A stretch of DNA of 64,000 bases from a bacterium (lineage in GTDB: Bacteria; Elusimicrobiota; Elusimicrobia; UBA1565; UBA9628): positions 54,457 to 118,456 of the forward strand of contig JAJZCM010000001.1 of the NCBI GenBank assembly GCA_021846045.1. Reading direction: 5' to 3'. Position 1 is the stretch's first letter. Each line of letters starts with the position of its first letter. The translations under genes were made by a program, and so were the position numbers. Shown piece by piece: positions 7,252 to 54,911 of the stretch. The notes below the pieces were generated by a model that saw only the letters and a program-made list of their open reading frames with translations, made no database searches and was not told the origin of the DNA.

Positions 7252-7343
7252 GTAACTACTCACGTCACCCCGACGAAAGTCGGGGTCCAGTTTCATGAAA
7301 CACCGGATTCCGGCTTTCGCCGGAATGACGAACCTGAGCGGTT
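7252..7343 (+). repeat. RPE/MITE-like double-hairpin dispersed repeat, copy 1
   Basis: Sequence GTAACTACTCACGTCACCCCGACGAAAGTCGGGGTCCAG...GGATTCCGGCTTTCGCCGGAATGACGAACCTGAGC. The same ~90-nt unit recurs at 31711, 39392, 45691, 45889, 54707 and 57294. Confidence 0.85.
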
Positions 7344-8842
7344 GATTTCCGATGAGAGGCCTGAACTGCATTTCTAAGCCGTGAGATTACCTCTGAGTTA
7401 ATATCTTCCAAATTCAGTTTCCAAGCCCAGTTTCCGGAGGTCGTTGCCGGAATGTTCATTCTCGCTTCCGATCCGAGGCTTAAAACGTCTTGCATCGGAA
7501 TAATGGCTGTGTTGGCCGGCGAATCCAAAAGGGCTTGGATGAGCTTCCAATGATTCTCAGGATCAGATTTTGAGCTATCGGCGTAGACAAGCGCCCGCTT
7601 GACTTCTTCTTGAGGGCCGTTTTGGAGCCAGCCGTTGAGCGTGTCGTTGTCATGCGTTCCGGTGTAGGCGACGGAGTTCGGCGCATAATTTTTAGGCAAA
7701 AATTTTTCTTCGCCGCCAAAGGAAAATTGAAGAATGTTCATGCCGGGAAGATGAAACTCATCTCGCAATCGGTAGACGTCGTCGCCGGCAACGCCTAGAT
7801 CTTCTGCGATGATTTGAAATTCCGGCATCTGGGGGAGAATCGAGGAAAAGAAATCCGATCCCGGACCCTGGACCCATTGGCCTTTGACGGCGGTTTTTTC
7901 TCCGGCCGGAATGCGCCAGTAGCGGCAAAAGCCGATAAAATGGTCCAGGCGCACAGCGCTAAAACGTTGAGCGGAAATTTTAAGGCGATTTTTCCACCAT
8001 TCATAGCCGGATTCTTTTAGGATATCCCAACGATAAAGGGGGTTTCCCCAGAGCTGCCCGGTTTTTGAAAAATAATCAGGGGGAACTCCGGAAACTGCGA
8101 TTGGAGAACCTTGTTTGTCCAAATCGAAAATATTTTGGTGCGCCCAGACGTCCACGCTGTCTTGGGAGACGAAGATTGGGATGTCTCCAATTAGAGATAT
8201 TCCTTTTTCCTCGCAGGCGCTTCTGAAGCGTTTCCACTGCCGATCGAAGAGAAACTGCTCGAATTGATAGTAAAACGAGGTTTCGCCTAAAAAATGAAGA
8301 AGGTCTCTTTCCCAAAAGCGGAAATTGCGGGCGCGAATTTGTTCCGGCCACTCGGCCCAGGGCTTTTGCTTAAAACGCTCTTTAAGCGAGGAAAACCATG
8401 CGTAATCGTTGATCCAGAAGGATTCCCGGTCCAAAAACGAGTGAAATTCAGCCCAGCTTCCGGGGGGATTTTCTTTTTGAAAACGGGAAGAAGCCAGTCG
8501 TAAAACCTTTTCTTTTTCCATCAATGCTTGAGCTGAGCTCAAGCCTCTGAATGCGGGAATTTCCGCGCGGTTCAGAAATCCTTCTTCCGCCGCCAGATCA
8601 AGATTGATAAAAGAAGGGTTTCCGGCAAAAGCGGAGACGCTGCTGTAGGGAGAATTTCCAGTGCCCGTGGGATTAATTGGGAGCATTTGCCAGTATTTTT
8701 GCCCGGTCTCGGATAAAAAATCGATGAAACGGCGCGCCGTGGGGCCCAAATCCCCAGTTCCGACTTCCCCGGGCAAAGAACTGATAGGGAACAATACCCC
8801 GCAGAAACGATTAGTAAACAGGCTCAAATTTTCTTTTCTCAT
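7265..8842 (-). CDS. malQ: 4-alpha-glucanotransferase (amylomaltase)
   Basis: GH77 motifs are present: LPINPTG..SPYSS, GDIPIFV and HDNDT. The last ~25 codons and the stop codon are supplied by the repeat element (…AQVRHSGESRNPVFHETGPRLSSG*). Start chosen at MRKENLSLF. Confidence 0.85.
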   Translation of the reverse strand: MRKENLSLFTNRFCGVLFPISSLPGEVGTGDLGPTARRFIDFLSETGQKYWQMLPINPTGTGNSPYSSVSAFAGNPSFINLDLAAEEGFLNRAEIPAFRGLSSAQALMEKEKVLRLASSRFQKENPPGSWAEFHSFLDRESFWINDYAWFSSLKERFKQKPWAEWPEQIRARNFRFWERDLLHFLGETSFYYQFEQFLFDRQWKRFRSACEEKGISLIGDIPIFVSQDSVDVWAHQNIFDLDKQGSPIAVSGVPPDYFSKTGQLWGNPLYRWDILKESGYEWWKNRLKISAQRFSAVRLDHFIGFCRYWRIPAGEKTAVKGQWVQGPGSDFFSSILPQMPEFQIIAEDLGVAGDDVYRLRDEFHLPGMNILQFSFGGEEKFLPKNYAPNSVAYTGTHDNDTLNGWLQNGPQEEVKRALVYADSSKSDPENHWKLIQALLDSPANTAIIPMQDVLSLGSEARMNIPATTSGNWAWKLNLEDINSEVISRLRNAVQASHRKSTAQVRHSGESRNPVFHETGPRLSSG

Positions 8843-9938
8843 AATTTGCCCGGACGATAGAGACCAGATCGTTGGTATTATCGCCCTTATCATCGAAACG
8901 AGTCATCCCGATAATTCCATCGTACTCGGTTTCCCTGAGGGTCGCGATCATTTTTTTGCGGTCAAACCCCGCTTTCTGAAAGGCCGCGAGAGATATTTTG
9001 GCCGCTTCATAGGCATAGATATCGTAGGTGCGTGGGGTGGTTTTAAATAAGGAGCGATATTGAGAGATAAAGGGATCGGCGCCGGGAAGGAAATCAACGG
9101 GAACCCCACTGATGACAAAATAGGCTCCGTTGGAAGCGGGGCCGGCGAGCTTAAATAAAGTGTCTTCCTTGGATGCTCCGCCTGAAAAAAAGGTTATACC
9201 CAGACGGTTATCACGAAGAGATTTGAGAATGTTTGCCGCTTCCGGGTAAAACCCACCGAAGAAAAGGCCCTGCGGCTTTGAAGCCTCAAGCGCGCTTATG
9301 AGCCCTGAAAGATTGGGCGGGTTGGGGGGAAGAGCGACAAATCCTAGAATTTTTCCACCTTCTTTTTTAAAATCTGAACCAAAGGCTTCTGAAAATTCCA
9401 TTCCGTAAGAGCTTTGATCGTCAACAATAAAAAACGAATGGATGCCGAGACGGGAATAAGCAAAATGAGCGGCGAATTTCGCCTGGGATAAATCAGTCGG
9501 CGGCATGCGGAAAATACTTTTTTTCCATTTCCAAGAGGGGCTTTTTTGCTGGGCGGTGAGAACGCTATTGGCGGCAGAGGGCGTGATCATGGGAATTAAG
9601 GATTCGGCGTAGACAGGAGCCGCGGCTAAGCAAGAATCCGAAGTAAAGTCTCCGATGACGGCAAAGACTTTTGGGTTTTCCGTTATTTGCCCAGCAGCCT
9701 TGACCGCTCCTTGGGGCGTTCCTTGATCGTCGTAAGCGCGGACAACGATATTCCAAGAATTTTCATCGGAATCATTGAACCCCGAAGCGGCTAATTTAAC
9801 GGCGCGGACGATGCCGCCGCCTTCGGCGCCGATAGGACCGGACAGCGGAACGGCAACGGCCAAAATGGCATTGGGTTTGGGGTTTGAGCAAGCGAGGATA
9901 ATCCCCGCGGCCAAAAGGAGCGGAAAAACTTTTCGCAT
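8811..9938 (-). CDS. periplasmic substrate-binding lipoprotein, LivK/branched-chain amino acid ABC-type (type I PBP)
   Basis: A lipoprotein signal (MRKVFPLLLAAGIILAC) is followed by a Leu/Ile/Val-binding-protein-like fold pattern. No permease or ATPase genes are adjacent. Confidence 0.65.
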   Translation of the reverse strand: MRKVFPLLLAAGIILACSNPKPNAILAVAVPLSGPIGAEGGGIVRAVKLAASGFNDSDENSWNIVVRAYDDQGTPQGAVKAAGQITENPKVFAVIGDFTSDSCLAAAPVYAESLIPMITPSAANSVLTAQQKSPSWKWKKSIFRMPPTDLSQAKFAAHFAYSRLGIHSFFIVDDQSSYGMEFSEAFGSDFKKEGGKILGFVALPPNPPNLSGLISALEASKPQGLFFGGFYPEAANILKSLRDNRLGITFFSGGASKEDTLFKLAGPASNGAYFVISGVPVDFLPGADPFISQYRSLFKTTPRTYDIYAYEAAKISLAAFQKAGFDRKKMIATLRETEYDGIIGMTRFDDKGDNTNDLVSIVRANYEKRKFEPVY

Positions 9939-9992
9939 TGGCCCTATTGTATCACTTGGCCGAAGCATAACGTCTTTCCTAGAGACGTTTCG

Positions 9993-10090
9993 GCACGCTC
10001 TCGCTTCGCGAGCAAGGAACGCAGGCGCGTGCCTAGAATCTTTCTCATAGATGCCCGCGCACGCTCTCGCTTCGCGAGCAAGGAACGCAG
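9993..10090. repeat. two identical 32-nt direct repeats (GCACGCTCTCGCTTCGCGAGCAAGGAACGCAG) separated by a 34-nt spacer; each contains a CTCGC-TTC-GCGAG hairpin
   Basis: Direct read of the intergenic region between the LivK-like gene start and the glycine-zipper gene stop. Confidence 0.7.
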
Positions 10091-10117: not shown

Positions 10118-12130
10118 TCATGAGGCTGGAGACCCTGGTGGCATCGGAGATTTTGACGGCGGAAGCGCCGGTTTAGAAGGAGCCGGATTATTTTTGTCGT
10201 TTGCGGAATTTTTTGTCGAGAGCTGAGTTTTCTTAGAAGAAGATTCTTTGTTTGTTAAATAATCTCGCCCAGCGGCGATTGCAGCTCCAATAACTGCTCC
10301 CGCAGCGCTTCCTATGGCCGCCCCCGGAAGACCGCCCGTCATGGCGCCAAGGATTCCACCCGCAACTCCGACAATCGCCGATCCTTTGAGCATGTCTTTG
10401 ACGTAACTGGTCTTTTTAGGGAGGGAACTTTTGGGCTTTTCTTGTTTGGCCGCGTGGTTTTTTTGGATTGAAGGTTTCCGCATTTTGGAGTTACCCGCAG
10501 TTTTTTTAGAAGGAGTTTGGTTGGGCGTGACCGCTGCCGAAGGCCCGCTCTGCGATAGTGCAGAATCCGACTTATTCTGGGCGAGCTGATTGCCAATTGC
10601 GTTACCGTACGCCATTGTTTTTTGTTTGTTCAAACCGAACGTATCTTTCGGCGTTGGTTGTGGAGATGTGGTGGCGAGGATGCCTCCAGCGGCGATTGCA
10701 GCTCCAATAACTGCTCCCGCGGCGCTTCCTATGGCCGCCCCCGGAAGACCGCCCGTCATGGCGCCAAGGATTCCACCCGCAACTCCGACAATCGCCGCCC
10801 CTTTGAGCATGTCTTTGACGTAGCTGGTCTTTTTAGGGAGGGAACTTTTGGGCTTTTCTTGTTTGGCCGCGTGGTTTTTTGGGGCGGCTTTGTGATGAAT
10901 TGAAGGTTTCCGCATTTTGGAGTTGCCCGCAGTTTTTTTAGAAGGAGTTTGGTTGGGCGTGACCACTGCCGAAGGCCCGCTCTGCGATAGTGCAGAATCC
11001 GACTTATTCTGGGCGAGCTGATTGCCAATTGCGTTACCGTACGCCATTGTTTTTTGTTTGTTCAAACCGAACGTATCTTTCGGCGTTGGTTGTGGAGATG
11101 TGGTGGCGAGGATGCCTTCTGAATTGGGAGAAGACGCAATCGGCGCGGGGGGCTGGAGAGGCTTGGACGGCCCGCCATTGCTTAGGGGGCCAGCTGCAAG
11201 CCCGATTCCGGCTCCAAGGACGGCGGCGGTGATGATCAATCCTGGGGCGGCTCCAAATCCCGTGACCATCAGTCCCGCGGCCAAACCCAAAAGAAGGCCG
11301 GTGGCTATGCGGGAAGTGGCGATATAGTGGCCGACTTTATTAATTCCACCCCAAAGTTTAGCGAAAAAACCGGGTTTTGATTTCTTGGGTTTGTCGGACG
11401 GCGCTTTAGGCGCCGGCGGTGCGGCCACTGGTTTATTAACGTCTTGAGTGAAAGGATTTTGGTTGGAGGTTTGAGATTTCCCACTGGAAGGCGGCGCTGA
11501 TGGGGTTGTGGGGGTTCCTCCAGATGCGTTGGCTTGGCCTTGGGTTTGAGTGGCGAGATTTCCCATTCCTTTTGTTGGTGGGGGCGTCGGGGTTCCTTGA
11601 GCGGCGGTGGATTTGGCAGCTTGGCGGGCTGAACCCATTGCCGCCGACCCTGCGACTTTCTGGTTCAGGGCTTGTCTTCCTTCATTACCCATTCCTGAAT
11701 TGGCTGGATTGGGAGTTGGTCTGGCAATGGAGTCATCCAATTTTTTTTTCTCAGCCGCCGTGGGTTTATATTGTGCAAGAGCCCAAAGAGGAGAACCGGG
11801 CGCGTATTCGGTTATAATGGGCCAGTGATTGGTTATATTGACATTCCTCAGAACCATTCCATGCTTACCAGTTCCTTGAAGAATCGCTTGAGCAAATTTG
11901 CGGCGCGCTTGATTGTCAGCGGCCTCTAGGGCCAATGACTTATCATCCACGCGGGAGACGGAACCGCAGGCATAATAAATGTCCCCTTTCGGATGGATCA
12001 AATGTTTCGGGGATTTTATGCATTCCTGCATTAAGTCATTCGGTGTTGGATTTGCCCAAGAGCTGACTGGAAACAGGCCTAGAGCTAAAATCGGAAAAAC
12101 CGTGGAGATAATCGCGAGTTTCAGTTTCAT
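10118..12130 (-). CDS. secreted low-complexity glycine-zipper repeat protein (N-terminal globular domain, P/T/S/Q-rich linkers, repeated GxxxG membrane-like segments)
   Basis: Signal peptide MKLKLAIISTVFPILALGLFPVSSWA, then a ~100-aa globular domain, then a long compositionally biased region with two ~139-aa near-identical repeats. Each repeat ends in GAAIVGVAGGILGAMTGGLPGAAIGSAAGAVIGAAIAAGG. Start set at the Met preceding the signal peptide. Confidence 0.6.
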   Translation of the reverse strand: MKLKLAIISTVFPILALGLFPVSSWANPTPNDLMQECIKSPKHLIHPKGDIYYACGSVSRVDDKSLALEAADNQARRKFAQAILQGTGKHGMVLRNVNITNHWPIITEYAPGSPLWALAQYKPTAAEKKKLDDSIARPTPNPANSGMGNEGRQALNQKVAGSAAMGSARQAAKSTAAQGTPTPPPTKGMGNLATQTQGQANASGGTPTTPSAPPSSGKSQTSNQNPFTQDVNKPVAAPPAPKAPSDKPKKSKPGFFAKLWGGINKVGHYIATSRIATGLLLGLAAGLMVTGFGAAPGLIITAAVLGAGIGLAAGPLSNGGPSKPLQPPAPIASSPNSEGILATTSPQPTPKDTFGLNKQKTMAYGNAIGNQLAQNKSDSALSQSGPSAVVTPNQTPSKKTAGNSKMRKPSIHHKAAPKNHAAKQEKPKSSLPKKTSYVKDMLKGAAIVGVAGGILGAMTGGLPGAAIGSAAGAVIGAAIAAGGILATTSPQPTPKDTFGLNKQKTMAYGNAIGNQLAQNKSDSALSQSGPSAAVTPNQTPSKKTAGNSKMRKPSIQKNHAAKQEKPKSSLPKKTSYVKDMLKGSAIVGVAGGILGAMTGGLPGAAIGSAAGAVIGAAIAAGRDYLTNKESSSKKTQLSTKNSANDKNNPAPSKPALPPSKSPMPPGSPAS
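10268..11103. repeat. near-perfect tandem duplication, ~417-bp unit x2 (one 18-nt indel), inside the glycine-zipper gene
   Basis: Units 10268-10685 and 10686-11103 are almost identical at the nucleotide level. The antisense shadow ORFs 10339..10596 and 10756..11028 are 95% identical. Confidence 0.85.
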
Positions 12131-12256
12131 TATTGGCGCCTCCCGCCTTCGCCTTATAAATGTAATCCCATCCCCGCGTCCTGTCAAGGGCCTTTTTAAT
12201 TTTTTACTAATTTTTTACTTTTCAAGTGGGGCTGAGAATTTGTAACTTTACAACAC

Positions 12257-13909
12257 ATGGAACGATGGACAATTAAGGAAGACCCTAACGCCGCGGACCC
12301 GCAACGCCACTCCCTTCTCATCGCGGGAGATAAATCGGATTTGCAGAAAATTATTAAAAAATTCGGCAAACTGTGCGGACGTCCGACCACAATGGGCGCT
12401 TCCGGCGACTATAATCTGTGTCTGCCGCTTCATCATTTGACCGAGAAAATTCAGAAAGAACTTGGGGAGTTTTTAGATTTGATGACGCCGCAAAAGCCCG
12501 TTTCCAAGGCCGTGAAGGAATCAGAGCCTCAAGAACCTGCGGTTTCGGCCCTTGAATATCCAACACCTCAGGAATCGCCAAAAGAAGAGTCTTTGCCCAC
12601 TCCAGGATTAGAGCTTGAAGTTTCTCCCGCGCCGCAACCGGAAGAGCCAAAGAAAGAAATTCCAGTTATTGAGACCGCGCCTTCGGCTTTGCCGCCCTTG
12701 GAGTCCTTGGCGACCCCGGCGGTGATTCCGGATCCTTTGAAGAATTTGGAAACTCTCAAAATCGGCTCCCATAATCGTTTCGCCCATGCGGCGGCAATTT
12801 CCGTCGCCGACGCCCCCGGGTCCATGTATAATCCACTTTTTATTTACGGGCCTCCGGGTTCGGGAAAAACACATTTGTCCCATGCCTTGGCCCAGGAAAT
12901 ATCAAAAAATCTGGGTGAAAATACCGTTTTATTGACTTCAGGCTGGAAACTGTCGGCGTCCACGGTTTCTGCCTCCAATGCGGCCCATTCCCTTTGGTGG
13001 GATAAAATGTCCGCGCATTTCAAAGTCATGATTATTGATGACCTTCACTTAATGGCTTTGACTGAGCAAAATCAGGGATTGATTGAGAAGATGATTTCCC
13101 AGTTTTTATCGGAAGGACGCCAACTGGTGGTCACCGCCGTTTATCCTCCCAAGGCATTGGAGTCTCTGGCCCAAAGGCTTAAGATTTCTTTTACGGCGGC
13201 GCAGGCTTCTTCCTTTGAAATGAAGCCCGCGCCGCCGTCTATCTCGATGGAGGAGTTCAATGACTTTATTCGAGGGAAAGATTTAAATGTGTCCGAAGAA
13301 GAATCAAAAATGCTGCTAGAGCGACTGTCCGCATTTCCTTTGGAGGCTCATTTGTGGGCTCGGCGGTTAGTTCGTTTTCTGGATTTGGGCGTTTCGTTGG
13401 GACAGAGTCCTAAAATCAAGGCATTATTGCCGGCGCTTTTTGATCTTGCATTGCCGGAAGAGGCGAAGGCGCTTCCGGATCCGTCCGACATGGCGAAGGT
13501 CAGCCATTTCCTTTTTCCAAAGGCCAAGGCGGAATCCTTGCCCATTACCTGGTTTTTCCCTAAAGGTTCGGATTCGATGGTCGCATGGGCGCAAATGATG
13601 TTTTTTCAATCCATGGCCGATATGGGAATTTCGCGTTCCTATCGAAACCTTCCGCCGCAGCCGTATGACCCCTCCCAGCCGCTGGGCCTTCCGTTTAAAA
13701 TCGGGGAAATCTGCCGGAGATTGTCTCCGAGAGCCGTGGTCCTTTTGGGGCCGCCTCCACAAACTCCATTGGGAGAAAGAGAGACCGAATGGATTCATGC
13801 GACGCGGCATGTTTTAGGAGCTATGGGAGTTGCGTCTGCGCATATTCCCTTTCAAGGAACTAAAGTCTACGCTTATTTCTTGAGGGCTCATCTGGACATG
13901 ATGCCATGA
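12257..13909 (+). CDS. DnaA-like AAA+ ATPase paralog (domain III only; no DnaA domain IV)
   Basis: SHNRFAHAAAISVADAPGSMYNPLFIYGPPGSGKTHLSHA matches the DnaA/Hda domain-III N-terminal region and Walker A. The Walker B/sensor region MIIDDLHLMA...LVVTAVYPPK is present. A P/E-rich N-terminal linker and a ~200-aa C-terminal extension lack the DnaA-box-binding signature. Confidence 0.6.
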   Translation: MERWTIKEDPNAADPQRHSLLIAGDKSDLQKIIKKFGKLCGRPTTMGASGDYNLCLPLHHLTEKIQKELGEFLDLMTPQKPVSKAVKESEPQEPAVSALEYPTPQESPKEESLPTPGLELEVSPAPQPEEPKKEIPVIETAPSALPPLESLATPAVIPDPLKNLETLKIGSHNRFAHAAAISVADAPGSMYNPLFIYGPPGSGKTHLSHALAQEISKNLGENTVLLTSGWKLSASTVSASNAAHSLWWDKMSAHFKVMIIDDLHLMALTEQNQGLIEKMISQFLSEGRQLVVTAVYPPKALESLAQRLKISFTAAQASSFEMKPAPPSISMEEFNDFIRGKDLNVSEEESKMLLERLSAFPLEAHLWARRLVRFLDLGVSLGQSPKIKALLPALFDLALPEEAKALPDPSDMAKVSHFLFPKAKAESLPITWFFPKGSDSMVAWAQMMFFQSMADMGISRSYRNLPPQPYDPSQPLGLPFKIGEICRRLSPRAVVLLGPPPQTPLGERETEWIHATRHVLGAMGVASAHIPFQGTKVYAYFLRAHLDMMP

Positions 13910-15330
13910 GCTTGGGAATTCTAAAAGATATCGCCTGGCTCGGCGCCGGATTTGTTTTAGGAGCGGGCGGGTCCTTGTTTTTGAGGGAAACTTTTTATAA
14001 AGACGAATTGGATTCCCAGGGTTTAAAAGAAGAATTAACGGAAACTCAAGTCCGCCTTGACGCGAAATCCCGAGAAATTAAAACCCTTCAAGATACCGTA
14101 CGATCCGCCGCTTCTCCTACGGATTTGACGGCGGCGCTGGCGGGAATCGTTTCGATCGTGACTCGGCACATGGAAGTGGATTTGGTCGCCTTTTTACTCT
14201 TGGATGAAGCCTCCCAGGAATTGGTCACTCGGCCCGGGGCTTACGGCCTTGAGAAGGAGGAGCAGATTTACAAAATATCGCTGATGGATGAAAACGCTTC
14301 CTCGGTTCGGGTTTTTAAGACAGGGAAGCCTTTCGTCGCGGGAGACGCTCAAGCCGACCCCGGCGTCATCACGCATTACGCCAAATTATGGGATATTCGC
14401 TCTTTAATCGTCGTTCCGGTCAGCAAACAAGGGCATTCCTGGGGTGTGATGCGGGTTGGTAGCCGCAAGCCTTATGCGTTTACCCAAGAGCATGTGGATC
14501 TGATGGGAGCAATTGCCGAGGATGCGGCGATTATCATTGAGATGTCGGTTCTAAATCAGCAATTACTTTCGGATAGGGAACAATTAAGGGCCTTAAGCCG
14601 TATGAAAGATGAGTTCGTTTCAACCGTCAGCCATGAGTTTAAGACGCCGCTGACAACGCTGGCGGGTTTTTTGGGGCTCATGCTGGAAGGGGAAATCGGC
14701 CCCGTCAGCGAGGATCAAAGACGATTTATGGTGATGGCTAAAAACGCGGTAGAGAGGCTTTCGAACATGGTTTCTGATTTATTAGACATTTCCCGACTTG
14801 AATCGGACATGAAAATGGAGCTGAAGCGTTTTTCTCTAACCCCATCGCTCTCTTCTATTATTGAAGCTCACAACCTTGAAGCGACGGCGGCCAAAAAGGA
14901 AATTCATCTCGATTCTCCCAAGAATTTGCCGGAAGCCCTCGCCGACCCAAAATGGATTTCGGTCGTCGCTGAGAATTTGATATCGAATGCGCTGAAATTT
15001 ACCAAACCGGGCGGACGCATCAGCGTTTCCGTTTTTAATAAAGGAGATTGCATCGAGACGATTATTGAAGATGACGGCATCGGCCTTCCACAAGAGGCGC
15101 TCTCCCATATCTTTGAAAAATTTTACCGGGCTTCAAACGCGCGGGAATTGAATATCTCGGGGACCGGCCTTGGCCTTGCGATATCAAAAAAAATTATCGA
15201 TTTACACGGCGGACGTTTATGGCTTGAGTCTTCCTTGGGAAAAGGAACGAAAGCTCATTTCGTCATTTATTCTGTCAACCGTTATGGCGGCCCCGGCCAA
15301 AACAGAACGGAAACAATGCAGGAGGCTTAA
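13906..15330 (+). CDS. GAF-domain sensor histidine kinase
   Basis: One N-terminal TM helix, a GAF-like region, the HisKA motif VSHEFKTPLTTLAGF, and HATPase_c (G-box GTGLGLAISKKII). It starts with an ATGA overlap onto the upstream gene. Confidence 0.85.
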   Translation: MSLGILKDIAWLGAGFVLGAGGSLFLRETFYKDELDSQGLKEELTETQVRLDAKSREIKTLQDTVRSAASPTDLTAALAGIVSIVTRHMEVDLVAFLLLDEASQELVTRPGAYGLEKEEQIYKISLMDENASSVRVFKTGKPFVAGDAQADPGVITHYAKLWDIRSLIVVPVSKQGHSWGVMRVGSRKPYAFTQEHVDLMGAIAEDAAIIIEMSVLNQQLLSDREQLRALSRMKDEFVSTVSHEFKTPLTTLAGFLGLMLEGEIGPVSEDQRRFMVMAKNAVERLSNMVSDLLDISRLESDMKMELKRFSLTPSLSSIIEAHNLEATAAKKEIHLDSPKNLPEALADPKWISVVAENLISNALKFTKPGGRISVSVFNKGDCIETIIEDDGIGLPQEALSHIFEKFYRASNARELNISGTGLGLAISKKIIDLHGGRLWLESSLGKGTKAHFVIYSVNRYGGPGQNRTETMQEA

Positions 15331-27330: not shown

Positions 27331-29901
27331 TTGATGCCGACCATGGTTAAAGATAAGATTGCCTCGCTTAAGAAATCTCTTGAGCTTCAGTCCTTTCTTC
27401 ATAAATCCATGATTTGGTGGCTTCCGCTTCTCTATTTTTTAATTTCTTCTCTTTTCTATTTACGGACATACGATTCCGCTCAGGTCAAGATTACCATCAT
27501 GCAAATGGGGGGATTGGCGCTTTTGACCCTGTGGGTCAGCCGCTTGATTGAATCGGGCGGCGCCGCGCTCAGCCGGGAAGACCTGGTTTGTCTGTCTCCG
27601 TTTTTGGCGTATCTTTTGGTCGGAATTCTTTCCTTCATCCATGCGCCTTACCGAATGGCGAGCGTGGACTTTTTCATCCGGCATTTTTTCTTTATGTCGG
27701 TGGCTCTTATCGTTATCTATGAATTCGACGCCGAAGCGTCAGAGCGTTTGACAAAAATACTCATTTGGACGGCCTGGGTGGCGGTCGGATACGGGTTTCT
27801 CCAGGTCATTGATACCCATTTCTTTCCTCCCGGAGTGGGGCACGGCATCGATCCTTTCATCTGGCGCATGGCCTTTGGCGATCGAGTGTTCTCAACTTAC
27901 GGTAATCCCAACTTTTTCGCGGACTTTTTAGTCATCATCTTCCCCATCTTGTTGTTGCGCTATCTCAAAGGGCGCCGGATGTCCTTGATTCCCTTGATGT
28001 TGATGCTCTTGGTTGATCTCTATTTTACGGGGACCAAGGGGGCTTGGGTGGGTTTTGGAATCGTGATTGTCGTTTTTTGCGTGATCGCCTTCATCTATTT
28101 TAAGGAAATTATTCAGCCGTATCGAAAGTATTTGATTGGGGCGGCAATTGCGGTCTTGCTACCGTTCTCATATATATTCATGAAGGATTTCACGACGCGC
28201 CTGGCTTCGGTTAATTTCCGCTTGTTTACCTGGGAAGCCACTTGGGAAATGATCATGACCCAGCCCTTTATCGGGACCGGCGTGGGGAGTTTTCCTCCGG
28301 TTTATCCTGCTTTTAGGCGCCCGCCGATTTTTCATATCGAGGCCAAGCATAATACGGAAACCGATCACGCGGAAGACGAGTATTTGGAAGAGTTGTTCGA
28401 CAATGGAATTCTGGGCTTTGGCGTATTTTTGTGGTTGATCATCAGCACCTTGGTCGTCGGTTTTAAGTCTCTAGGGCAGATGCTGGATGTTTCCCACTCA
28501 TCAAAAGATAAAAAAATTCCGCCGAGGGTCTTTGACCTTTTGGGCTACATGATCGCGTTTATCGGCATGTTGTGTCATAATTTTTTCGACGTGAGTCTCC
28601 GTTTTGTCTCTTCGGGGGTTTATTTGGGCCTTTTGCCTGGGATGATCGTAAATCTCTCCCGAGGAAAGGGCCTTTATGAATCGCATACTCTTCAGGAAAA
28701 AAATGTCAAACCGGGCGAAGCGGCTCCGGAGTCGTTTTGGAAAACCCTGTCTGAGTTCTTAATCTGGCCGGTTCGTTTGGCTGCCTGGGGCGGGCTTTTC
28801 TATATCGCCTTCTTGATTCTGACTCAATTTAACGCCTTGCAGGGCCCTATTGATCGCCTAACGATGGGAGGGGAAATTCTTCAGTGGTGGCTTTCTTGGG
28901 GAACCTTATTGGCTTGCGTTCTTGGATTGGGATTTGTTTTTTTTCGACTGATCCTTCTGTCGGAGAATCCCTTTGTCGGGGCGCTCATCTTGTCGGCCCT
29001 GCCGATTCTTTATACTTTTTGGGGTTATTTTAAAGCCGATATCCATCACAATATCGCCATCTATTTTTCAAAGGAACATGATTGGGATAAGGCCTTGTCC
29101 GAATATCAAACGGTGCATCGCCTCGATCCTAATTTTGCGATGGCGCTCTACTTCATGGGGAATGTCTTCAACGACCGGTTTAATATGCAAAAAACTTATA
29201 ATCCTTCCTGGGGAGACAAGAACAACGTTTCGCGGGATGATTATGAGCGCGCCTTGGACGCCTATAATGAAGTTCGCAAGCTTTCCCCCAATTACGTTCA
29301 GATGCATTATCAGGTGGGCGTCCTTCATCTTAAGCGCGCCCAGTGGGCGATAGACCACGGTCATCCCGAAGACGCGTTGACGTATTTTAACCGCGCGCTG
29401 ACCCGCTTTAAGCTTTATAAGACCATTGATCCCGTCTTTGGGCCCAATTTCCTGAGAATAGGCCAGGTCTATATGATGGAGCATCGCTATGCGGACGCGG
29501 TCAAGGCCTACCAAGAATATATTTTGGCGGATAAATGCGCGGTTGATCCTTCCTTGATCGTCAAGCCTTTCCTTAGAAAAACCATTCTCAGTTATCAAAC
29601 CTATGTTCATGTCCCCGGAATTCCCTATCCGGTTCATCGTCACCCCGCTCCCGACAAGCATGCGGAAGGGGCCGAGGTTTACACCAGTTTGGGGAACGCT
29701 TATTTTATGATGAATAATTTTGAGGCGGCCAAGGCCGCTTACCAGGAAGCTCTTCAATATGATCCAAATTTTGCCCAAGCTCAACATAACATAGCCGCCG
29801 TCTCGCTGCGGCTTAAAAATCCAAAAGGGAAGCCCTTGCTCCAAAATCCTTCAGAAGCTTCTCCACATTCTTCCGGCTATGAGATCATTCAGAAAAAGTA
29901 G
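27331..29901 (+). CDS. Wzy_C (O-antigen ligase / PglL-type oligosaccharyltransferase-like) polytopic membrane protein with C-terminal TPR domain
   Basis: More than 10 TM helices and the Wzy_C-like loop PFIGTGVGSFPPVYPAFR...HIEAKHNTETDHAEDEYLEELFDNGILG. The C-terminal ~350 aa are TPR-like. Confidence 0.65.
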   Translation: MMPTMVKDKIASLKKSLELQSFLHKSMIWWLPLLYFLISSLFYLRTYDSAQVKITIMQMGGLALLTLWVSRLIESGGAALSREDLVCLSPFLAYLLVGILSFIHAPYRMASVDFFIRHFFFMSVALIVIYEFDAEASERLTKILIWTAWVAVGYGFLQVIDTHFFPPGVGHGIDPFIWRMAFGDRVFSTYGNPNFFADFLVIIFPILLLRYLKGRRMSLIPLMLMLLVDLYFTGTKGAWVGFGIVIVVFCVIAFIYFKEIIQPYRKYLIGAAIAVLLPFSYIFMKDFTTRLASVNFRLFTWEATWEMIMTQPFIGTGVGSFPPVYPAFRRPPIFHIEAKHNTETDHAEDEYLEELFDNGILGFGVFLWLIISTLVVGFKSLGQMLDVSHSSKDKKIPPRVFDLLGYMIAFIGMLCHNFFDVSLRFVSSGVYLGLLPGMIVNLSRGKGLYESHTLQEKNVKPGEAAPESFWKTLSEFLIWPVRLAAWGGLFYIAFLILTQFNALQGPIDRLTMGGEILQWWLSWGTLLACVLGLGFVFFRLILLSENPFVGALILSALPILYTFWGYFKADIHHNIAIYFSKEHDWDKALSEYQTVHRLDPNFAMALYFMGNVFNDRFNMQKTYNPSWGDKNNVSRDDYERALDAYNEVRKLSPNYVQMHYQVGVLHLKRAQWAIDHGHPEDALTYFNRALTRFKLYKTIDPVFGPNFLRIGQVYMMEHRYADAVKAYQEYILADKCAVDPSLIVKPFLRKTILSYQTYVHVPGIPYPVHRHPAPDKHAEGAEVYTSLGNAYFMMNNFEAAKAAYQEALQYDPNFAQAQHNIAAVSLRLKNPKGKPLLQNPSEASPHSSGYEIIQKK

Positions 29902-31708
29902 CCGCAAATTTCTTCCCGCTCTTTTAATCGCCTTTGCGGCTTCTTTGACCGCCGCTGTCAGGGCGGCAACTTTTCCCGCGACCGACGAGGCCGTTTTTTC
30001 TCCGATGCAAGAGGAAATGGCGCGTTCGCTCAAAAATTTGAAAGAGGGAGATTTTGGGCCGCCTTATTTTATCGCTTACCGCATGGTCGTTGGCCGGGGA
30101 ATGGATATCTCGGCGTCTTTTGGCGGAGTTGTATCCGAAAACAAATATCATTCCCAGACTCTTTTCTCCGAAGTCAGATATGGGAATAAAAAAATGGATA
30201 ACACCTCGATTCAATATCAGGGGCTGAGCGCAGAGGCGCCGCTCAGCGGAAAAGAATTACGCGAGAATTTATGGATATTGACGGATAAGGCCTATAAGGA
30301 CGCGGTTGCCGGATATCTGGAAAAAAAAGCGAAACGGGTTACGGAATTTAGAGCGGAAAATCTGCCGGATTTTACCGATGAACCCTCGACGCGTTCCTAT
30401 GAGCCTCAAGAGGCTCCGAGTTTTGACGATGCCGCAGCCCGTTCCCTCGTTAAAAATTTAAGCCGGCTTTTGCGTTCCTATCCTTATATTTATCATGGGA
30501 CTGTGATTTTGCATTTAGGATGGTCGCGCCGGTACCTTTTGACCTCCGAGGGGACCAAGGTCTCGGGGCCGTATGAGAATTTGCCCAATTACCTCAGTAT
30601 TGACGTCAATTCTCGAGCGAAAGACGGGCTTAAGGTCAGCAATTACCGCGAGTGGGTTTTTAAAGATATGAAAAGTCTTCCGCCTCGGGAGAAACTAGCA
30701 AGAGCCGTGAAGCGCTTGGCGCTTGAGCTTAAAGAGTTGAGAGACGCCCCCTTAGAGACACCCGTCGCCGCTCCGACAATTTTGGATCCGGAAATGACGG
30801 GGGTCTTGTTTCATGAAGCGTTGGGACACAAGTTAGAGGGGGAGCGGCAAAGGGATCCCTTGCAAGGGCAAATATTTAAAGGCATGGTCGGCAAAAAAAT
30901 TATTCCAAGTTTCTTGTCAGTTATTGACGACCCAACGATGAGTTTTTTTAAAGGCGTTTCGCTTCACGGTCATTACCGGATTGATTCCGAAGGCGTCCCA
31001 TCTGAAAGAGTCGTTCTGGTTCGCAATGGTATTTTGGAAAATTTCCTGATGTCGAGATGGCCGCTTAAGGATTTTTCCCATTCAAACGGGCATGGGCGGG
31101 CTTCTTCAAGACTTCGTCCCTTGGGGCGCATGGCGAACTTGATGATTGAGGCTAAAAATCCTCTAAGTCCCGCCGCGCTTAAAAATAAATTACTGAAGCT
31201 GCTTCGCTCGGAACACAAGCCTTACGGCTTTAGGATTGTGGGCGCTTACGGCGGAGACAATCCAAGCGAGAGAACCCAGGCTCAGACGCTGCAGCTTCGG
31301 CCGCGTTTAGTTTACCGAATTTCGGCCAAGGACGGAAAAGAGACCTTGGTAAGAGGCGTTAAAATCGTCGTGACCCCCTTGGTCGTTTTAAACCGCATTT
31401 TGGCGGCTTCAAACGACGAGGCCCTCTCAAATCCTTACTTTTGCGGGGCGGAATCAGGATGGGCGCCGGTCGATCAAATCGCTCCGAGCGTTTTAGTTTC
31501 GGAGCTTGAGTTTGAGCGTCTGCCTGAAAATCGCTTAAAACCGCCGATTTTGCCCTCTCCGTTGACACATTTGCTAAAGCACGGAGAGGACGCTTGGCCT
31601 CCAGCCTTGATCGCGCCCTCTCCGTTGACACATTTGCTAAAGCACGGAGAGGACGCTTGGCCTCCAGCCTTGATCGCGCCTTCTCCGTTGACGCATGGAA
31701 AAAATTGA
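29879..31708 (+). CDS. secreted TldD-like metallopeptidase (HExxGH present)
   Basis: Signal peptide, then a TldD/PmbA fold pattern with HEALGHKLEGE. The C-terminus is extended by a 63-nt tandem duplication. Confidence 0.7.
   Translation: MRSFRKSSRKFLPALLIAFAASLTAAVRAATFPATDEAVFSPMQEEMARSLKNLKEGDFGPPYFIAYRMVVGRGMDISASFGGVVSENKYHSQTLFSEVRYGNKKMDNTSIQYQGLSAEAPLSGKELRENLWILTDKAYKDAVAGYLEKKAKRVTEFRAENLPDFTDEPSTRSYEPQEAPSFDDAAARSLVKNLSRLLRSYPYIYHGTVILHLGWSRRYLLTSEGTKVSGPYENLPNYLSIDVNSRAKDGLKVSNYREWVFKDMKSLPPREKLARAVKRLALELKELRDAPLETPVAAPTILDPEMTGVLFHEALGHKLEGERQRDPLQGQIFKGMVGKKIIPSFLSVIDDPTMSFFKGVSLHGHYRIDSEGVPSERVVLVRNGILENFLMSRWPLKDFSHSNGHGRASSRLRPLGRMANLMIEAKNPLSPAALKNKLLKLLRSEHKPYGFRIVGAYGGDNPSERTQAQTLQLRPRLVYRISAKDGKETLVRGVKIVVTPLVVLNRILAASNDEALSNPYFCGAESGWAPVDQIAPSVLVSELEFERLPENRLKPPILPSPLTHLLKHGEDAWPPALIAPSPLTHLLKHGEDAWPPALIAPSPLTHGKN
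31555..31698. repeat. 63-bp tandem duplication (2.3 copies), each unit holding an 8-bp-stem hairpin CTCTCCGT..ACGGAGAG
   Basis: Units 31555-31617 and 31618-31680 are identical, followed by a partial third unit. Encodes PSPLTHLLKHGEDAWPPALIA x2 at the C-terminus of the TldD-like protein. Confidence 0.85.
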
Positions 31709-31710
31709 CA

Positions 31711-31772
31711 GCTCCGGAATCCAGAAGATCGCTGCTCTGGACCCCGACTTTCATCGGGGTGACGTGAGTTGT
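31711..31772 (-). repeat. degenerate/partial copy of the double-hairpin repeat family
   Basis: CCCCGACTTTCATCGGGGTGACGTGAGTTGT (reverse orientation, stem with a C-to-T change) plus a CCGGAATCCAG remnant. Confidence 0.6.
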
Positions 31773-31773
31773 T

Positions 31774-32712
31774 ATGGAAAAAATTGACATGGAACAAGTC
31801 TCTTCTGTAACTTTGGAGGAATTGCCCTGCAATTTGTGCGGTTCCAGAGAGAGCGCCGTTTTATACCAGCGGCCTTATCTGACTCCGCATGACCAGAAAG
31901 TCGGAGCTTTTGCCGCGACGACCGATGAATTTCTCAATTACGGACGCATTGTTTCTTGCTTAAAATGCGGTTTGTGTTATACCAATCCCCGTCCCACGGC
32001 CGAGGCCATTCTTTCCGGCTATGGAAATTACGTGGATGAAAGCTATCTTTTGGAAAGCTCAAGCCGTTCAATTAACGCCCATTTGAGCCTTAATACCATT
32101 CGGCGGTTCACTTCAACGGGCAAGCTCCTTGAAGTCGGTTCTTCCGTCGGTTATTTTCTCAACGCGGCCCGAACCGATTTTGAAGTGACGGGCCTGGAGC
32201 CTTCCCGTTGGGCCGCCGAAGAGGCGCGGAGAAGATTTAAAGTCGAATGTTATCCCGAATCGCTCGAAAACCCAAGCAGCATCCAGGGAAGAAGTTTTGA
32301 TGTGGTCGCCATGTCGGATGTCGTTGAGCATCTTCTGGATCCGAAATCGGCGGTTCTCTCTTGTCGAAATTTTTTAAAACCTGGGGGGATTCTCTACCTT
32401 CTGACGCCCGATATCGGAAGCCTTTCGGCCAAGTTGATGCGCGGCTATTGGTGGGGGCTTCGTCCCGCCCATATTTATTATTTTTCAAGACAAACGATGA
32501 CGCAAATGCTCATGGGAAACGGGTTTGAAATATTGACCATTAAATCCTTCGGGCGAATTTTCTCCTATTCCTATTGGCTGAGCCGGTTGAAGAACTACCC
32601 AAAATCAGTTTTCCTTACGGTTGGCGGGGTAATCAAAGCCCTTGGCCTTGAAAATAAGCTGGTCTATATTGATACACGGGATTCAATGGAAATATGCGCG
32701 AGAAAAAGGTAA
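31774..32712 (+). CDS. class I SAM-dependent methyltransferase with N-terminal C4 zinc ribbon
   Basis: CNLCGS...CLKCGLC, then LEVGSSVGYF (motif I) and VVAMSDVVEHLLDP. Confidence 0.75.
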   Translation: MEKIDMEQVSSVTLEELPCNLCGSRESAVLYQRPYLTPHDQKVGAFAATTDEFLNYGRIVSCLKCGLCYTNPRPTAEAILSGYGNYVDESYLLESSSRSINAHLSLNTIRRFTSTGKLLEVGSSVGYFLNAARTDFEVTGLEPSRWAAEEARRRFKVECYPESLENPSSIQGRSFDVVAMSDVVEHLLDPKSAVLSCRNFLKPGGILYLLTPDIGSLSAKLMRGYWWGLRPAHIYYFSRQTMTQMLMGNGFEILTIKSFGRIFSYSYWLSRLKNYPKSVFLTVGGVIKALGLENKLVYIDTRDSMEICARKR

Positions 32713-34031
32713 ATCAGGCGTCTTTAAAAATTGCCTGCGTTCCTTGCTCGCAAAGCGAGAGTGTGCGCGGGCGTCTAGGGGGAAGATTTTGGGCACGCGC
32801 ATGCATTCTCTTTTTCGCATTCATCCTGAGAAGCGCCTACGCTTTTTACGCTTACAATCATACGTTTAAGGAATATAAGACCGAAGGCCAGCAGGTATCG
32901 GCGCTTGATCCGGATGGATACAATCGCCTGGGCGTCGCCTTAATTGAGCGCGGGGAACTTTCCCTGACGCCGGGCCGTCTTGAAACTTCCCGCGAGCCTT
33001 TTTATCCCCTTTTGTTGGCGGCGGTCCATTTCTTTTTCGGGCTTTCACCCATCGTGGGGATTACGCTGAATGTCTTGATCGGAGTTTTGTGTTGTTGGAT
33101 GACGTATGCGGTCACTCTCTCTGTTTTTCAAAATGAACGGGTGGGGCTTTTTTCTCTCTTGCTGGCGGCTTTTTTTCCGGAATGGATTTATTTTTCCGCG
33201 ACGATGTTTCGAGAGCCGTTGATCATCCTTTTAAGCTTGATTTGGATTCTCCTGTGGCAGAAATACTCTTCCTCGAGGAATGGGTGGGCTTATGCCGGGA
33301 TGGGAACGGCCTTTGGGCTTCTCTGTTTAACCCGTTCTCCTTTCATCCCCATAGGGGGCGCTTTTGCGCTCTTGGCCGCCTCAAAAATAAAACTTAAAGA
33401 TTGGGCTCGGACCATTGGAATTTTCCTTTTGTGCGCTTTTGTTCTGGAAGGAATATGGACGTACCGCAACGAGAGAATCTTAAAGAGATGGGTCGCGGGG
33501 GCGAGCATGGGGGGCTCGGTCATGTATTTATCCCTTCTCTATAATTACTCGCGTCCGGACATTCCCCTTGAATACCCGCTGGGTGCGGGAAAAGACCCCG
33601 TTATTTCTGTGGTCCTTGCCCGGCATTTGACCTTGGATCAAGCCGAGCCTATTTTTTATCAGTCCTGTCTTAAAATTCTCATCCATCACCCGCTGGTTTT
33701 TTGGGACGCTTTCATCCATAAGGTTATGAAACTCTGGCGGCCTTACCCCAATCCTGGATGGAAATATCCGCATTCACTTTTCGCTCTTTCATCTCTCTCT
33801 TTGATCGGGCTTTTCTCGGGTGGTGGAATCATGCTTCTAGGTCTTTGGGGAAGCGTTTTGGCGTGGAGAAATGGATATCCTATTGGATTTTTAATCCTGT
33901 TTCCGATGCTCATGTCGGTGGTTTACGGGCTTTTTTGGGCCGTGATGCGCTATCACACAACTTTAATGGTGGGGGTCATTCCTCAGGCGGCCTACGCCTT
34001 AGACGCGCTGCTCTCAAGAAAAGAATCATGA
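32694..34031 (+). CDS. GT-C membrane glycosyltransferase (ArnT/PMT / GT39-83-like)
   Basis: Polytopic protein with an N-terminal periplasmic loop GYNRLGVAL..REPFYPLLLA, typical of polyprenyl-phosphate-sugar-dependent GT-C enzymes. Start uncertain. Confidence 0.65.
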   Translation: MREKKVNQASLKIACVPCSQSESVRGRLGGRFWARACILFFAFILRSAYAFYAYNHTFKEYKTEGQQVSALDPDGYNRLGVALIERGELSLTPGRLETSREPFYPLLLAAVHFFFGLSPIVGITLNVLIGVLCCWMTYAVTLSVFQNERVGLFSLLLAAFFPEWIYFSATMFREPLIILLSLIWILLWQKYSSSRNGWAYAGMGTAFGLLCLTRSPFIPIGGAFALLAASKIKLKDWARTIGIFLLCAFVLEGIWTYRNERILKRWVAGASMGGSVMYLSLLYNYSRPDIPLEYPLGAGKDPVISVVLARHLTLDQAEPIFYQSCLKILIHHPLVFWDAFIHKVMKLWRPYPNPGWKYPHSLFALSSLSLIGLFSGGGIMLLGLWGSVLAWRNGYPIGFLILFPMLMSVVYGLFWAVMRYHTTLMVGVIPQAAYALDALLSRKES

Positions 34032-38784: not shown

Positions 38785-38872
38785 AAGCGAATTATAGTAA
38801 AATGGAAATCCCTTTATGCTGCTACGAGAACGATTCCCAAGTCCGAGAGAACGCAAGAACAGGGCCGTTTTC

Positions 38873-39487
38873 ATGGACAGAGACGGTGTGATTATTAAAG
38901 AAGTAAATTACCTCTCGCGCCTTGAGGATATGAAAATTATCTCCGGAGTTGCGGATTCGATCGCGAAACTGAGAAAAGCGGGCTTTAAGATGATAGTTAT
39001 CAGCAATCAGTCGGCCGTCGCTCGCGGACGCCTGAGCCTTTTTAAACTTCATAAAATTACGCGCGTTTTACTCCAAATGATTCGGGAAAAAAATTCCAAG
39101 GCTTGCATTGACGCCGTTTACTATTGTCCGCATCATCCTGATTTCGGCAAACCCTGCTCTTGCCGGAAACCCGGGATTGGGCTTCTCCTTAAAGCGCAAA
39201 AAAAATTCAACATTGATTTGAAATCCTCCTATTTTGTCGGAGACTCAAGCGCCGATATCCTAACGGCTCGGCGGGCAGGATGCGTTCCTCTGCTGGTGAA
39301 AACGGGGAAAGGTGGAAAAGACGGACTCTACAAGGCAAAGCCGAAAAAAATATTTAAAAACCTTTCCGAGGCTTCCCGCTGGATTTTAACTGCTCAGGTT
39401 CGTCATTCCGGCGAAAGCCGGAATCCAGTTGGAAACCTGGACCCCGACTTTCGTCGGGGTGACGTGAGTAGTTGCGCTGGATTTTAA
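38873..39487 (+). CDS. gmhB: D-glycero-D-manno-heptose 1,7-bisphosphate phosphatase (HAD-IIIA)
   Basis: FMDRDGVI (DxD), ISNQS, YYCPHHPDFGKPCSCRKP (Zn-binding Cys cluster), FVGDSSAD. The last ~28 codons and the stop codon come from the repeat element (AQVRHSGESRNP...). Confidence 0.8.
   Translation: MDRDGVIIKEVNYLSRLEDMKIISGVADSIAKLRKAGFKMIVISNQSAVARGRLSLFKLHKITRVLLQMIREKNSKACIDAVYYCPHHPDFGKPCSCRKPGIGLLLKAQKKFNIDLKSSYFVGDSSADILTARRAGCVPLLVKTGKGGKDGLYKAKPKKIFKNLSEASRWILTAQVRHSGESRNPVGNLDPDFRRGDVSSCAGF
39392..39475 (-). repeat. double-hairpin dispersed repeat copy (reverse orientation)
   Basis: GTTCGTCATTCCGGCGAAAGCCGGAATCC...TGGACCCCGACTTTCGTCGGGGTGACGTGAGTAGTTGC. Confidence 0.85.
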
Positions 39488-45690: not shown

Positions 45691-45776
45691 TCGTCACCCC
45701 GACGAAAGTCGGGGTCCAGGCCCACGCGAAAGTCTGGATTGCGGCTTTCGCCGCAATGACGGGTGAGTTTGCCGAA
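45691..45776 (+). repeat. variant copy of the double-hairpin repeat; stem 2 carries compensatory changes (TTGCGGC-TTTC-GCCGCAA)
   Basis: GTCACCCCGACGAAAGTCGGGGTCCAGG...TGGATTGCGGCTTTCGCCGCAATGACGGGTGAG. Confidence 0.8.
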
Positions 45777-45849
45777 TATCTACAATTGGACATTGACTTG
45801 GCACAGCCTATATAGACTATACTTATCCTAGGCCTCCTTCACAAATAAA

Positions 45850-54696: not shown

Positions 54697-54706
54697 GATT
54701 TTTGTT

Positions 54707-54798: not shown

Positions 54799-54911
54799 GA
54801 TTTTTGTAAGAAATTAGCAATATGAATCTGCGACGATTACGTATAGGATAGCATAAGCCTACGTAAGGAAGGCTTGAAATAAATTAGGGCTTCTGTTATA
54901 ACTCTACAGAC

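Follow-up and report, generated by a model that had tools for sequence, protein, structure and literature searches.

CGTC-1 REP dimers with 10-bp target duplications in an Elusimicrobiota genome: a probable small mobile family

INTRODUCTION

Repetitive extragenic palindromes (REPs) marked by an unpaired CGTC tag were defined by Di Nocera, De Gregorio and Rocco in 2013 (BMC Genomics 14:522; PMC3733652). In the CGTC-1 family the tag is joined to an 8-bp stem starting A-T, a 4-nt loop and a CCA tail; TGTC and CCTC are also admitted as tags, and an A followed by a T opens the stem 'almost invariably' (PMC3733652). CGTC REPs are mostly head-to-head dimers with the tags outside, often heterodimers, and are sometimes found in frame within genes; they have no dedicated transposase (PMC3733652). 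Here we describe a short double-hairpin repeat of this kind, present in seven copies in a 64,000-nt stretch of DNA from an uncultured bacterium of the Elusimicrobiota (contig JAJZCM010000001.1, positions 54,457 to 118,456; the whole stretch is called the window below), and weigh the ways in which it may have spread.

Several known repeats fall within the CGTC class. The dRS3 element of Neisseria is a CGTC-1 element, and of the Rickettsia palindromic elements (RPEs) of Rickettsia conorii two belong here as well, RPE-6 as a CGTC-1 and RPE-4 as a CGTC-4 REP (PMC3733652). All CGTC-1 dimers of Halothiobacillus neapolitanus lie within an outer palindrome that is never found alone (PMC3733652). REP families comprise tens to thousands of units, their size varying widely between species, and the 2013 survey ranged over five phyla, mostly Alphaproteobacteria (PMC3733652). 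The Neisseria intergenic mosaic elements (NIMEs) were considered Neisseria-specific in 2007. For the dRS3-type REP doublets forming hairpins (REPINs) of Neisseria, movement driven by REP-associated tyrosine transposases (RAYTs) has been proposed (bioRxiv 10.1101/2021.07.10.451892).

RESULTS

Structure and classification of the repeat

The unit consists of two inverted hairpins with differing stems, framed by short imperfect outer inverted repeats. Its left half reads TAACTACTCA / CGTC-ACCCCGAC-GAAA-GTCGGGGT-CCAG and is followed by a spacer of ~14 nt; its right half reads CTGG-ATTCCGGC-TTTC-GCCGGAAT-GACG / AACCTGAGCAGTTA. The outer inverted repeats (TAACTRCTCA ... TGAGCAGTTA) pair with each other, and this pairing extends into the inverted hairpins; the outer arms were found only together with cores. 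With the bounds for coordinates set at TAAC...GTTA, the unit is 92 nt long, or 94 nt including the flanking G and C. A sequence-only reading of the window had put it at roughly the right size (~90 bp) and had correctly noted that the GAAA loops lie on opposite strands and that the unit is pseudo-twofold symmetric; the stems, which it gave as 7 bp, are 8 bp once the A-T closing pair is counted.

These features match those of CGTC-1 REPs one by one. On the tagged strand CGTC is followed by the stem in all seven copies of hairpin 1 and in all intact copies of hairpin 2. The stem of hairpin 2, ATTCCGGC/GCCGGAAT, fully fits 8 bp with an A-T start, and that of hairpin 1, ACCCCGAC/GTCGGGGT, is also 8 bp and has A in the first position but C in the second. 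Both hairpins have a GAAA loop on the tagged strand (partners in other genomes have GAAA, GGAA, GAAC, GCAA and similar loops), CCA(G) follows the stem in every copy, and all window copies are head-to-head with the tags outside. Judged by its sequence, the family agrees with CGTC-1 REPs on every criterion and classifies as a head-to-head heterodimer of a known class, where the earlier reading could place it in no named one. It is not a new repeat type, and since the class is known the main value of this result is classification. The class has been described, so that one condition named as refuting the earlier reading holds in part, but it is one without a known function or mobilising enzyme.

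The likeness to RPEs that had been proposed holds for residence in frame, at gene 3' ends and between genes; it does not make the family unclassifiable, since RPE-6 and RPE-4 are themselves CGTC REPs. Given that published assignment (PMC3733652), the resemblance probably reflects common descent and not analogy only.

Copies in the window and their target duplications

The hairpin-1 27-mer GTCACCCCGACGAAAGTCGGGGTCCAG occurs seven times in the window with at most one mismatch, and hairpin 2 five times, against an expectation of zero for each from shuffled sequence (100 shuffles for hairpin 1). An nhmmer profile built from the full copies, run on the window, recovered exactly the same seven copies and no others, and a general repeat finder also recovered the family. 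Five copies are full, one is truncated and one is a variant without outer arms (Table 1). The dispersed, structured repeat is thus present at all the places where it had first been read, and in the kinds of context then named: the copies at 45691 and 54706 are in divergent intergenic regions, those at 7253 and 39387 at gene 3' ends, that at 31706 between same-strand genes and those at 45890 and 57295 in frame inside open reading frames (ORFs). The density, one copy per ~9 kb, had been called unusual; it is ordinary for REP-carrying genomes, in which units number tens to thousands.

Table 1. Copies of the repeat in the window, and in-frame copies on a second contig (L076) of the same genome
DNA	Position	Strand	Length	Form	Flanking duplication	Location
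Window	7253-7344	+	92 nt	Full; outer arms and CGTC-1 hairpin pair	Flanking 10-mers match only 2/10; no recognisable target duplication	Antisense frame forms last ~26 codons and stop of 4-alpha-glucanotransferase gene 7265-8893(-)
Window	31706-31774	-	69 nt	Truncated; right half missing or diverged	ATTTTTTCCA on both sides, 10/10; direct repeat extends to 16 nt	Between two same-strand genes
Window	39387-39474	-	88 nt	Spacer 4 nt shorter	Perfect, 10 bp, AAATCCAGCG	Last codons of HAD-phosphatase (GmhB-like) gene 38816-39487
Window	45691-45762	+		Bare CGTC-1 head-to-head dimer; no outer arms	None	Divergent intergenic region
Window	45890-45981	+	92 nt	Full	Flanking 10-mers 8/10, exact core AAAAGTCG	In frame, N-terminal tail of 606-aa PMT_2-like membrane protein (45850-47670)
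Window	54706-54797	+	92 nt	Full	Perfect, 10 bp, TGATTTTTGT, at 54696-54705 and 54798-54807	Divergent intergenic region
Window	57295-57437	+	143 nt	Long variant; 51-nt module inside hairpin-2 loop	Flanking 10-mers 7/10; P-P-V encoded on both sides	In frame, variable linker of 446-aa protein (57108-58448)
L076	10117-10260			Long variant		In frame, N-terminal region of MFS protein P0009
L076	15176-15304			Composite unit		In frame, between Ank and caspase domains of 476-aa Ank-caspase protein

Direct 10-nt repeats lie next to TAAC/GTTA at five of the six armed copies, that is, those with outer arms; they match perfectly at three of them (31706, 39387 and 54706), at 8/10 positions at 45890 and at 7/10 at 57295. 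A relative, GCA_021836825.1 (L085), is syntenic over the glycosyltransferase and coiled-coil genes, and at the site orthologous to 54706 its positions 1390-1430 read GTTTTCATGGTTCTTGTAAGAAATTAG, a single 10-mer with no element. This is an empty site. The same relative carries a separate, more decayed copy elsewhere in its orthologue of the 446-aa protein, with a 9/10 duplication, and this copy is an independent insertion. The target duplications and the empty site therefore identify the copies as insertions: the armed 92-nt dimer enters new sites with a 10-bp target duplication and is the active form in the window genome.

Several sites show what an insertion did to its surroundings. On the + strand the target at 31706, ATGGAAAAAATTGACA, contains the stop codon of gene 29879-31708 and the start codon of gene 31774-32712, and since the duplicated target holds both, both neighbouring genes stay intact; the copy itself has one loop-side change in hairpin 1 and lacks the second half of hairpin 2. 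Deletion of the 39387 copy and one 10-mer in silico gives back a normal gene end, ...RWILKQ*, with an ATGA overlap with the next gene start. At 54706 the left copy of TGATTTTTGT shares bases with the start codon of glycosyltransferase gene 53938-54696(-) and is followed immediately by the element. The locus L008, from an Elusimicrobia metagenome-assembled genome (MAG) and the only one with which the window family has its left arm in common, was considered as an orthologue of the 39387 site and rejected, the neighbouring gene being different.

We also observed a different palindrome in the intergenic region of the 54706 copy. At 7534-7780 of L087, a relative whose intergenic region matches window 54697-54911, another inverted-repeat pair (CTTAAGGTCGGGACAATGCCG / CGGCATTGTCCCGACCTTAAG) brackets conserved promoter-region sequence, which suggests that small palindromic elements have landed repeatedly in this region.

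The copies in independent assemblies

In MAG GCA_027401925.1 the window is found on contig DAHZHZ010000002.1, in reverse orientation, at about 2.4-66.4 kb. In independent assemblies and samples the copies recur at identical sites with 99.4-100% identity, so the repeats are real and not the assembly artefact that had been raised as a concern. Three short-read contigs (L072, L074 and L080) break inside copies, as they would at true multi-copy repeats.

Residence in coding sequence

The element together with its duplication adds 102 nt, or 34 codons, as at 45890; the long variant adds 153 nt, or 51 codons, as at 57295. The sense strand has one stop-free frame, and the antisense frames carry stops near the element end. 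In-frame copies were found in four unrelated host proteins, always in the same frame, so that each acquires the conserved peptide as described for RPEs; two are in the window and two on contig L076 (DAHZHZ010000003.1 of MAG GCA_027401925.1; Table 1). The gene calls include the copies within the 606-aa and 446-aa proteins, and homologues P0002-P0004, P0006 and P0007 of the 446-aa protein are without the inserted peptide. At two gene ends, those for the glucanotransferase and the HAD-phosphatase, the final codons have been replaced by the antisense strand of the element. This element-coded tail lies beyond the Pfam domain in both proteins, GH77 reaching to residue 496 of 542 and HAD to residue 186 of 223. 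Overall, copies occupy intergenic DNA, disordered or terminal parts of proteins, and gene 3' ends.

Searches with the encoded peptide added little. A literature search on VIPAKAGIQ and similar peptide strings found no mention. A protein search with the 48-aa element peptide gave no match although P0001 and P0009 contain the peptide, an apparent limit of the word index, and a HMMER search against cluster representatives gave 20 weak matches, several with 4-6 matched stretches each, from a query too short to be informative.

Folding and modular composition

As single-stranded DNA, the unit is predicted to fold into a four-way junction made of the outer stem, hairpin 1, a central TCCAG/CTGGA stem and hairpin 2 (z-scores -5 to -7); the junction forms because the two stems differ. 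As RNA, G-U pairs join both halves into one long hairpin (z-scores -5 to -9). Hairpin 1 being invariant, its hairpin-2 partners were compared over many genomes: changes on both sides occur at six of the eight stem pairs, and 96% of cells are paired, in a set of partners pre-selected for at least 6 of 8 pairs. This covariation favours local hairpins over one long hairpin. In the 45691 copy, the hairpin-2 stem has a compensatory C-G to G-C swap (ATTGCGGC/GCCGCAAT), which lies within hairpin 2 and would break the long-hairpin pairing.

Contig L076 also carries composite units of the form hairpin / ~100-nt spacer / hairpin (12267-12440 and 15176-15304). The spacer module of these units (L076 12290-12400 and 15200-15255) reappears in inverted form as the 51-nt module of the window's long variant. 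Since the module is common to both, the units have been rebuilt from modules, as in NIMEs and in bacterial interspersed mosaic elements (BIMEs).

Distribution of the hairpin across phyla

In a collection of species-representative genomes the exact 28-nt hairpin 1 was found at 69 loci, three of them on complete chromosomes. By record title, the hosts belong to Omnitrophica, Elusimicrobia, Patescibacteria, Gemmatimonadales, several delta-proteobacterial and Thermodesulfobacteriota lineages, and many Alphaproteobacteria. The identical 28-nt hairpin is therefore present in at least six phyla, candidate phyla included. An inverted partner hairpin lies within 140 nt at 60 of the 78 occurrences of hairpin 1 in the window and the 69 loci. 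Outside the CGTC...GACG core the sequence varies by genome; for example, the JAEZXS MAG has a longer palindromic shell, and arrays of mosaic type occur in the CAVYOS and Omnitrophica MAGs. The best protein matches among the loci compared are at 45-53% identity, in an Omnitrophica MAG. The host range of the hairpin goes far beyond that of the 2013 survey and calls for horizontal spread or a strong constraint at the sequence level.

One locus shows how such titles are to be read. L009, a 3.2-kb 'Rhodothermales' contig, has flanks around the hairpin that are nearly identical to those of the Gemmatimonadales loci L025 and L032; it is probably mis-binned, and phylum counts from MAG titles therefore need care.

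Scans of metagenomes gave no matches to the 37-nt left end and two uninformative fragments with the 20-nt right end, and no parent insertion sequence was seen in the DNA examined; a phage collection gave no match.

Other repeats and features of the window

A second dispersed repeat of ~55-75 nt (...GCACGCTCTCGCTTCGCGAGCAAGGAACGCAG) occurs at 9973-10026 and 10039-10090 (+), as two tandem copies between genes, and at 32733-32808 (-), as an inverted copy within gene 32694-34031 (PMT_2-like), in the N-terminus as called. The TldD/PmbA-like gene 29879-31708 has at its 3' end a perfect tandem duplication of 63 bp (31552-31677, with a partial third unit to ~31700), which repeats the peptide PSPLTHLLKHGEDAWPPALIA and adjoins the truncated element copy. 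Tandem repeats of 417-432 bp lie at 10269-11117 inside a 689-aa ORF, gene 10118-12187 (-). In L081, another assembly of the same organism, a 531-aa product is called, with an alignment gap at these repeats, so that assemblies probably differ in how many copies they have. The window also contains a DnaA-like gene (Bac_DnaA domain) at 12257-13909; the GC skew is positive across all 64 kb and so gives no sign of a replication origin switch in the window.

DISCUSSION

How the family may have spread

We believe, with a probability of about 70%, that the repeats form a small non-autonomous mobile family whose core is a CGTC-1 REP head-to-head heterodimer, of the class of dRS3/NIME and RPE-6, and which is moved in trans by an enzyme that makes staggered cuts. 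This enzyme would be encoded elsewhere and would make cuts staggered by 10 bp, as a DDE-type transposase or similar enzyme might, and it would not be a single-strand transposase of the RAYT/IS200 type. The conserved hairpins, with their four-way junction in single-stranded DNA, may act as a recognition or structural module. Only harmless copies would survive, which would account for the observed distribution of the copies, and recombination would also reshuffle modules to give the long variant and the composite units.

A number of observations weigh against this proposal. The full copy at 7253 and a copy on L076 are without a recognisable duplication, the truncated copy at 31706 has an ambiguous repeat of 10-16 nt, and no duplications were seen at the bare dimer 45691 or at dimers of other genomes, the JAEZXS and CAVYOS loci having none that could be recognised. 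Since the bare dimers are without duplications, the staggered-cut route is perhaps limited to the armed subfamily. No presence/absence polymorphism was seen among near-identical strains, and recent activity is thus not supported. Pfam tables list no transposase gene in the window or on L076, none was found in about 750 kb of other loci with CGTC hairpins, and no RAYT homologue turned up there or in the ~86 kb covered of the window genome. A candidate insertion sequence between the composite units of L076, made up of an HTH_Tnp_1 gene and a 534-aa ORF, was examined and rejected: the ORF encodes a low-complexity membrane protein, there are no matching ends, and the right-hand unit lies inside the Ank-caspase gene.

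The first alternative is that the family is a REPIN, a REP doublet copied via single-stranded DNA by a single-copy RAYT (Y1 HUH, IS200/IS605 type) encoded elsewhere. We consider this unlikely. Two inverted REPs 14-20 nt apart are what a REPIN would contain, and the C-GAAA-G loops, which are of a kind known to form very stable DNA mini-hairpins, also speak for it. Transposition of the IS200/IS605 type leaves no target duplication; the bare dimer 45691 has none either, and a RAYT route is possible for such dimers, but the 10-bp duplications of the armed copies and the empty site are unlike this chemistry. In Neisseria, the REPIN master sequence ATTCCCGCGCAGGCGGGAATC is a hairpin of the same type, and REPIN decay tracks frameshifted Group 2 RAYTs (bioRxiv 10.1101/2021.07.10.451892). 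However, the RAYT of N. gonorrhoeae, whose gene is frameshifted (NZ_CP119140.1), is flanked directly by GTAG-type hairpins, a dRS3 pair merely adjoining. Di Nocera et al. did not find any RAYT with flanking CGTC units (PMC3733652), and the lack of a RAYT homologue in the 750 kb mentioned above points the same way.

Less credence still can be given to the view that the repeats are primarily a host-selected signal in RNA or DNA, for instance a hairpin for mRNA stabilisation or processing, a small RNA, or a gyrase or integration host factor (IHF) site, kept for its function. The predicted folds are very stable, G-U pairing permits one long RNA hairpin, several copies lie directly after genes, the 28-nt hairpin is identical across phyla, and many REPs have been argued to act as RNA elements (PMC3733652). 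Yet the copies lie in both orientations to transcription, in divergent promoter regions and inside coding sequence, no T-run follows the hairpins, family sizes vary widely between species, and the target duplications and empty site mark the copies as insertions. A signal function would in any case be compatible with mobility, as a secondary role. The search for known RNAs gave no Rfam family at the gathering score; at permissive thresholds there were sub-threshold matches only, and no tRNA or tmRNA was found. The consensus of the Rfam small RNA FtrB holds a hairpin of the same type, which speaks for an RNA role, though FtrB merely has this hairpin motif in common with the repeat. FtrB is a Francisella small RNA (RF02748) whose consensus contains the CGTC-1-like hairpin GUCAUUCCCGCGUAGGCGGGAAUC; we compared it with window 45843-45991 (-). 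From this sequence likeness, RF02748 may have been built partly on a REP of the CGTC class.

It is very unlikely that the units are recombinase targets spread by recombination and not by transposition. This view draws on dRS3, which filamentous phages target through an IS110-type transposase: the Nf/MDA phages integrate at dRS3, and a role as a recombinase site has been proposed for it in the literature. The mosaic units with their shuffled modules would agree with this view. No IS110-type or phage genes lie next to any copy, however, the sole recombinase of the window is a XerC/D-like integrase ~10 kb from the nearest copy, and site-specific recombination leaves 10-bp duplications of unrelated targets unexplained. 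An assembly artefact or chance similarity, in favour of which there is nothing beyond the metagenomic origin of the source genome, can practically be set aside, as no copies are expected by chance, the sites are identical in independent assemblies and samples, flanks are unique with the gene context intact, and short-read contigs break at the copies.

The target duplications and the empty site bear on which enzyme spreads CGTC REPs, dRS3 and some RPEs among them; the 2013 survey identified no transposase dedicated to these, and a RAYT was put forward in later work. The clean 10-bp duplications, the orthologous empty site and the 102-nt (3n) size point to a staggered-cut mechanism, and the family offers a concrete system in which to seek the mobilising enzyme. 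A bolder proposition, improbable in our estimation, is that CGTC REP dimers are moved by a transposition system that makes 10-bp staggered cuts and recognises the hairpin pair, the stop-free design in multiples of three being an adaptation to coding sequence. If true, sharing of this system across phyla would explain the identical 28-nt hairpin in Omnitrophica, Elusimicrobia, Patescibacteria, Gemmatimonadales, delta-proteobacterial lineages and Alphaproteobacteria.

Comparison with known systems

The window family resembles the CGTC-1 REPs of the 2013 survey in its tag, 8-bp stem, 4-nt loop and CCA tail, in the head-to-head heterodimers, in its occurrence in several phyla, in spacers of 20-100 bp or less and in its in-frame intragenic copies; next to the repeats in the window, on L076 and in about 750 kb of other loci, no transposase gene was seen. 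It differs in that the hairpin-1 stem starts A-C instead of A-T, in that its host belongs to an uncultured lineage and to none of the phyla named in 2013, and in the 10-bp target duplications, of which the paper makes no mention. With the dimers of H. neapolitanus, which are set in a 41-bp palindrome, it has in common an outer inverted repeat never found on its own; the outer arms in the window are different in sequence and length (10-14 nt), and no target duplications were reported there.

In Neisseria the same architecture is found in N. gonorrhoeae DNA (CGTCATTCCCGCGCAGGCGGGAATCTAG ..55 nt.. CTGGATTCCCGCTTTCGCGGGAATGACGAA), for which two whole chromosomes of 2.17 Mb, L075 and L084 (NZ_CP119140.1), served as reference; both are filed as plasmids in the plasmid collection. 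The hairpin type and the extended flanks GTCA..TCYAG and CTGGA..TGACGAA of this DNA are like those of the window, and modules are combined as mosaics in NIMEs as well. The 20-bp dRS3 pattern ATTCCCN8GGGAAT is one compensated pair away from hairpin 2 of the window, ATTCCGN8CGGAAT, and is carried exactly by L048 (ATTCCCGCTTGCGCGGGAAT). NIMEs (dRS3-RS-dRS3) form long intergenic arrays with RS spacers of 50-150 bp, whereas the window has single units with spacers of ~14 nt and outer arms, frequently located in coding sequence; only the two composite units of L076, 12267-12440 and 15176-15304, resemble dRS3-RS-dRS3 units.

RPEs, like the present family, are palindromic repeats of ~100 bp that lie in frame in unrelated genes and add a conserved peptide. 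RPE-6 and RPE-4 are compared here by their published class only; RPE-1 and the remaining RPE families are longer and unrelated to CGTC hairpins.

In REPINs (Bertels and Rainey 2011; Park et al. preprint), an inverted REP doublet is likewise the replicating unit, and the long G-U-paired RNA fold of the window unit fits the REPIN picture, in which two inverted REPs can fold into a single hairpin. For REPINs the proposed route is movement by a RAYT without target duplication, whereas no RAYT was found in the DNA covered here, and 10-bp duplications at five of the six armed copies, together with the empty site, describe another kind of insertion.

In this last respect the family is like bacterial MITEs (miniature transposable elements with inverted repeats) such as Correia, ERIC and QMITE. 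Like these it is small, has terminal inverted repeats and a fixed-length duplication, here of 10 bp and matched by an empty site, does not code for a transposase, and gives occasional in-frame fusions. It differs from MITEs in having no known parent insertion sequence with matching ends, and in that the interior of the element, and not its ends, is conserved across phyla.

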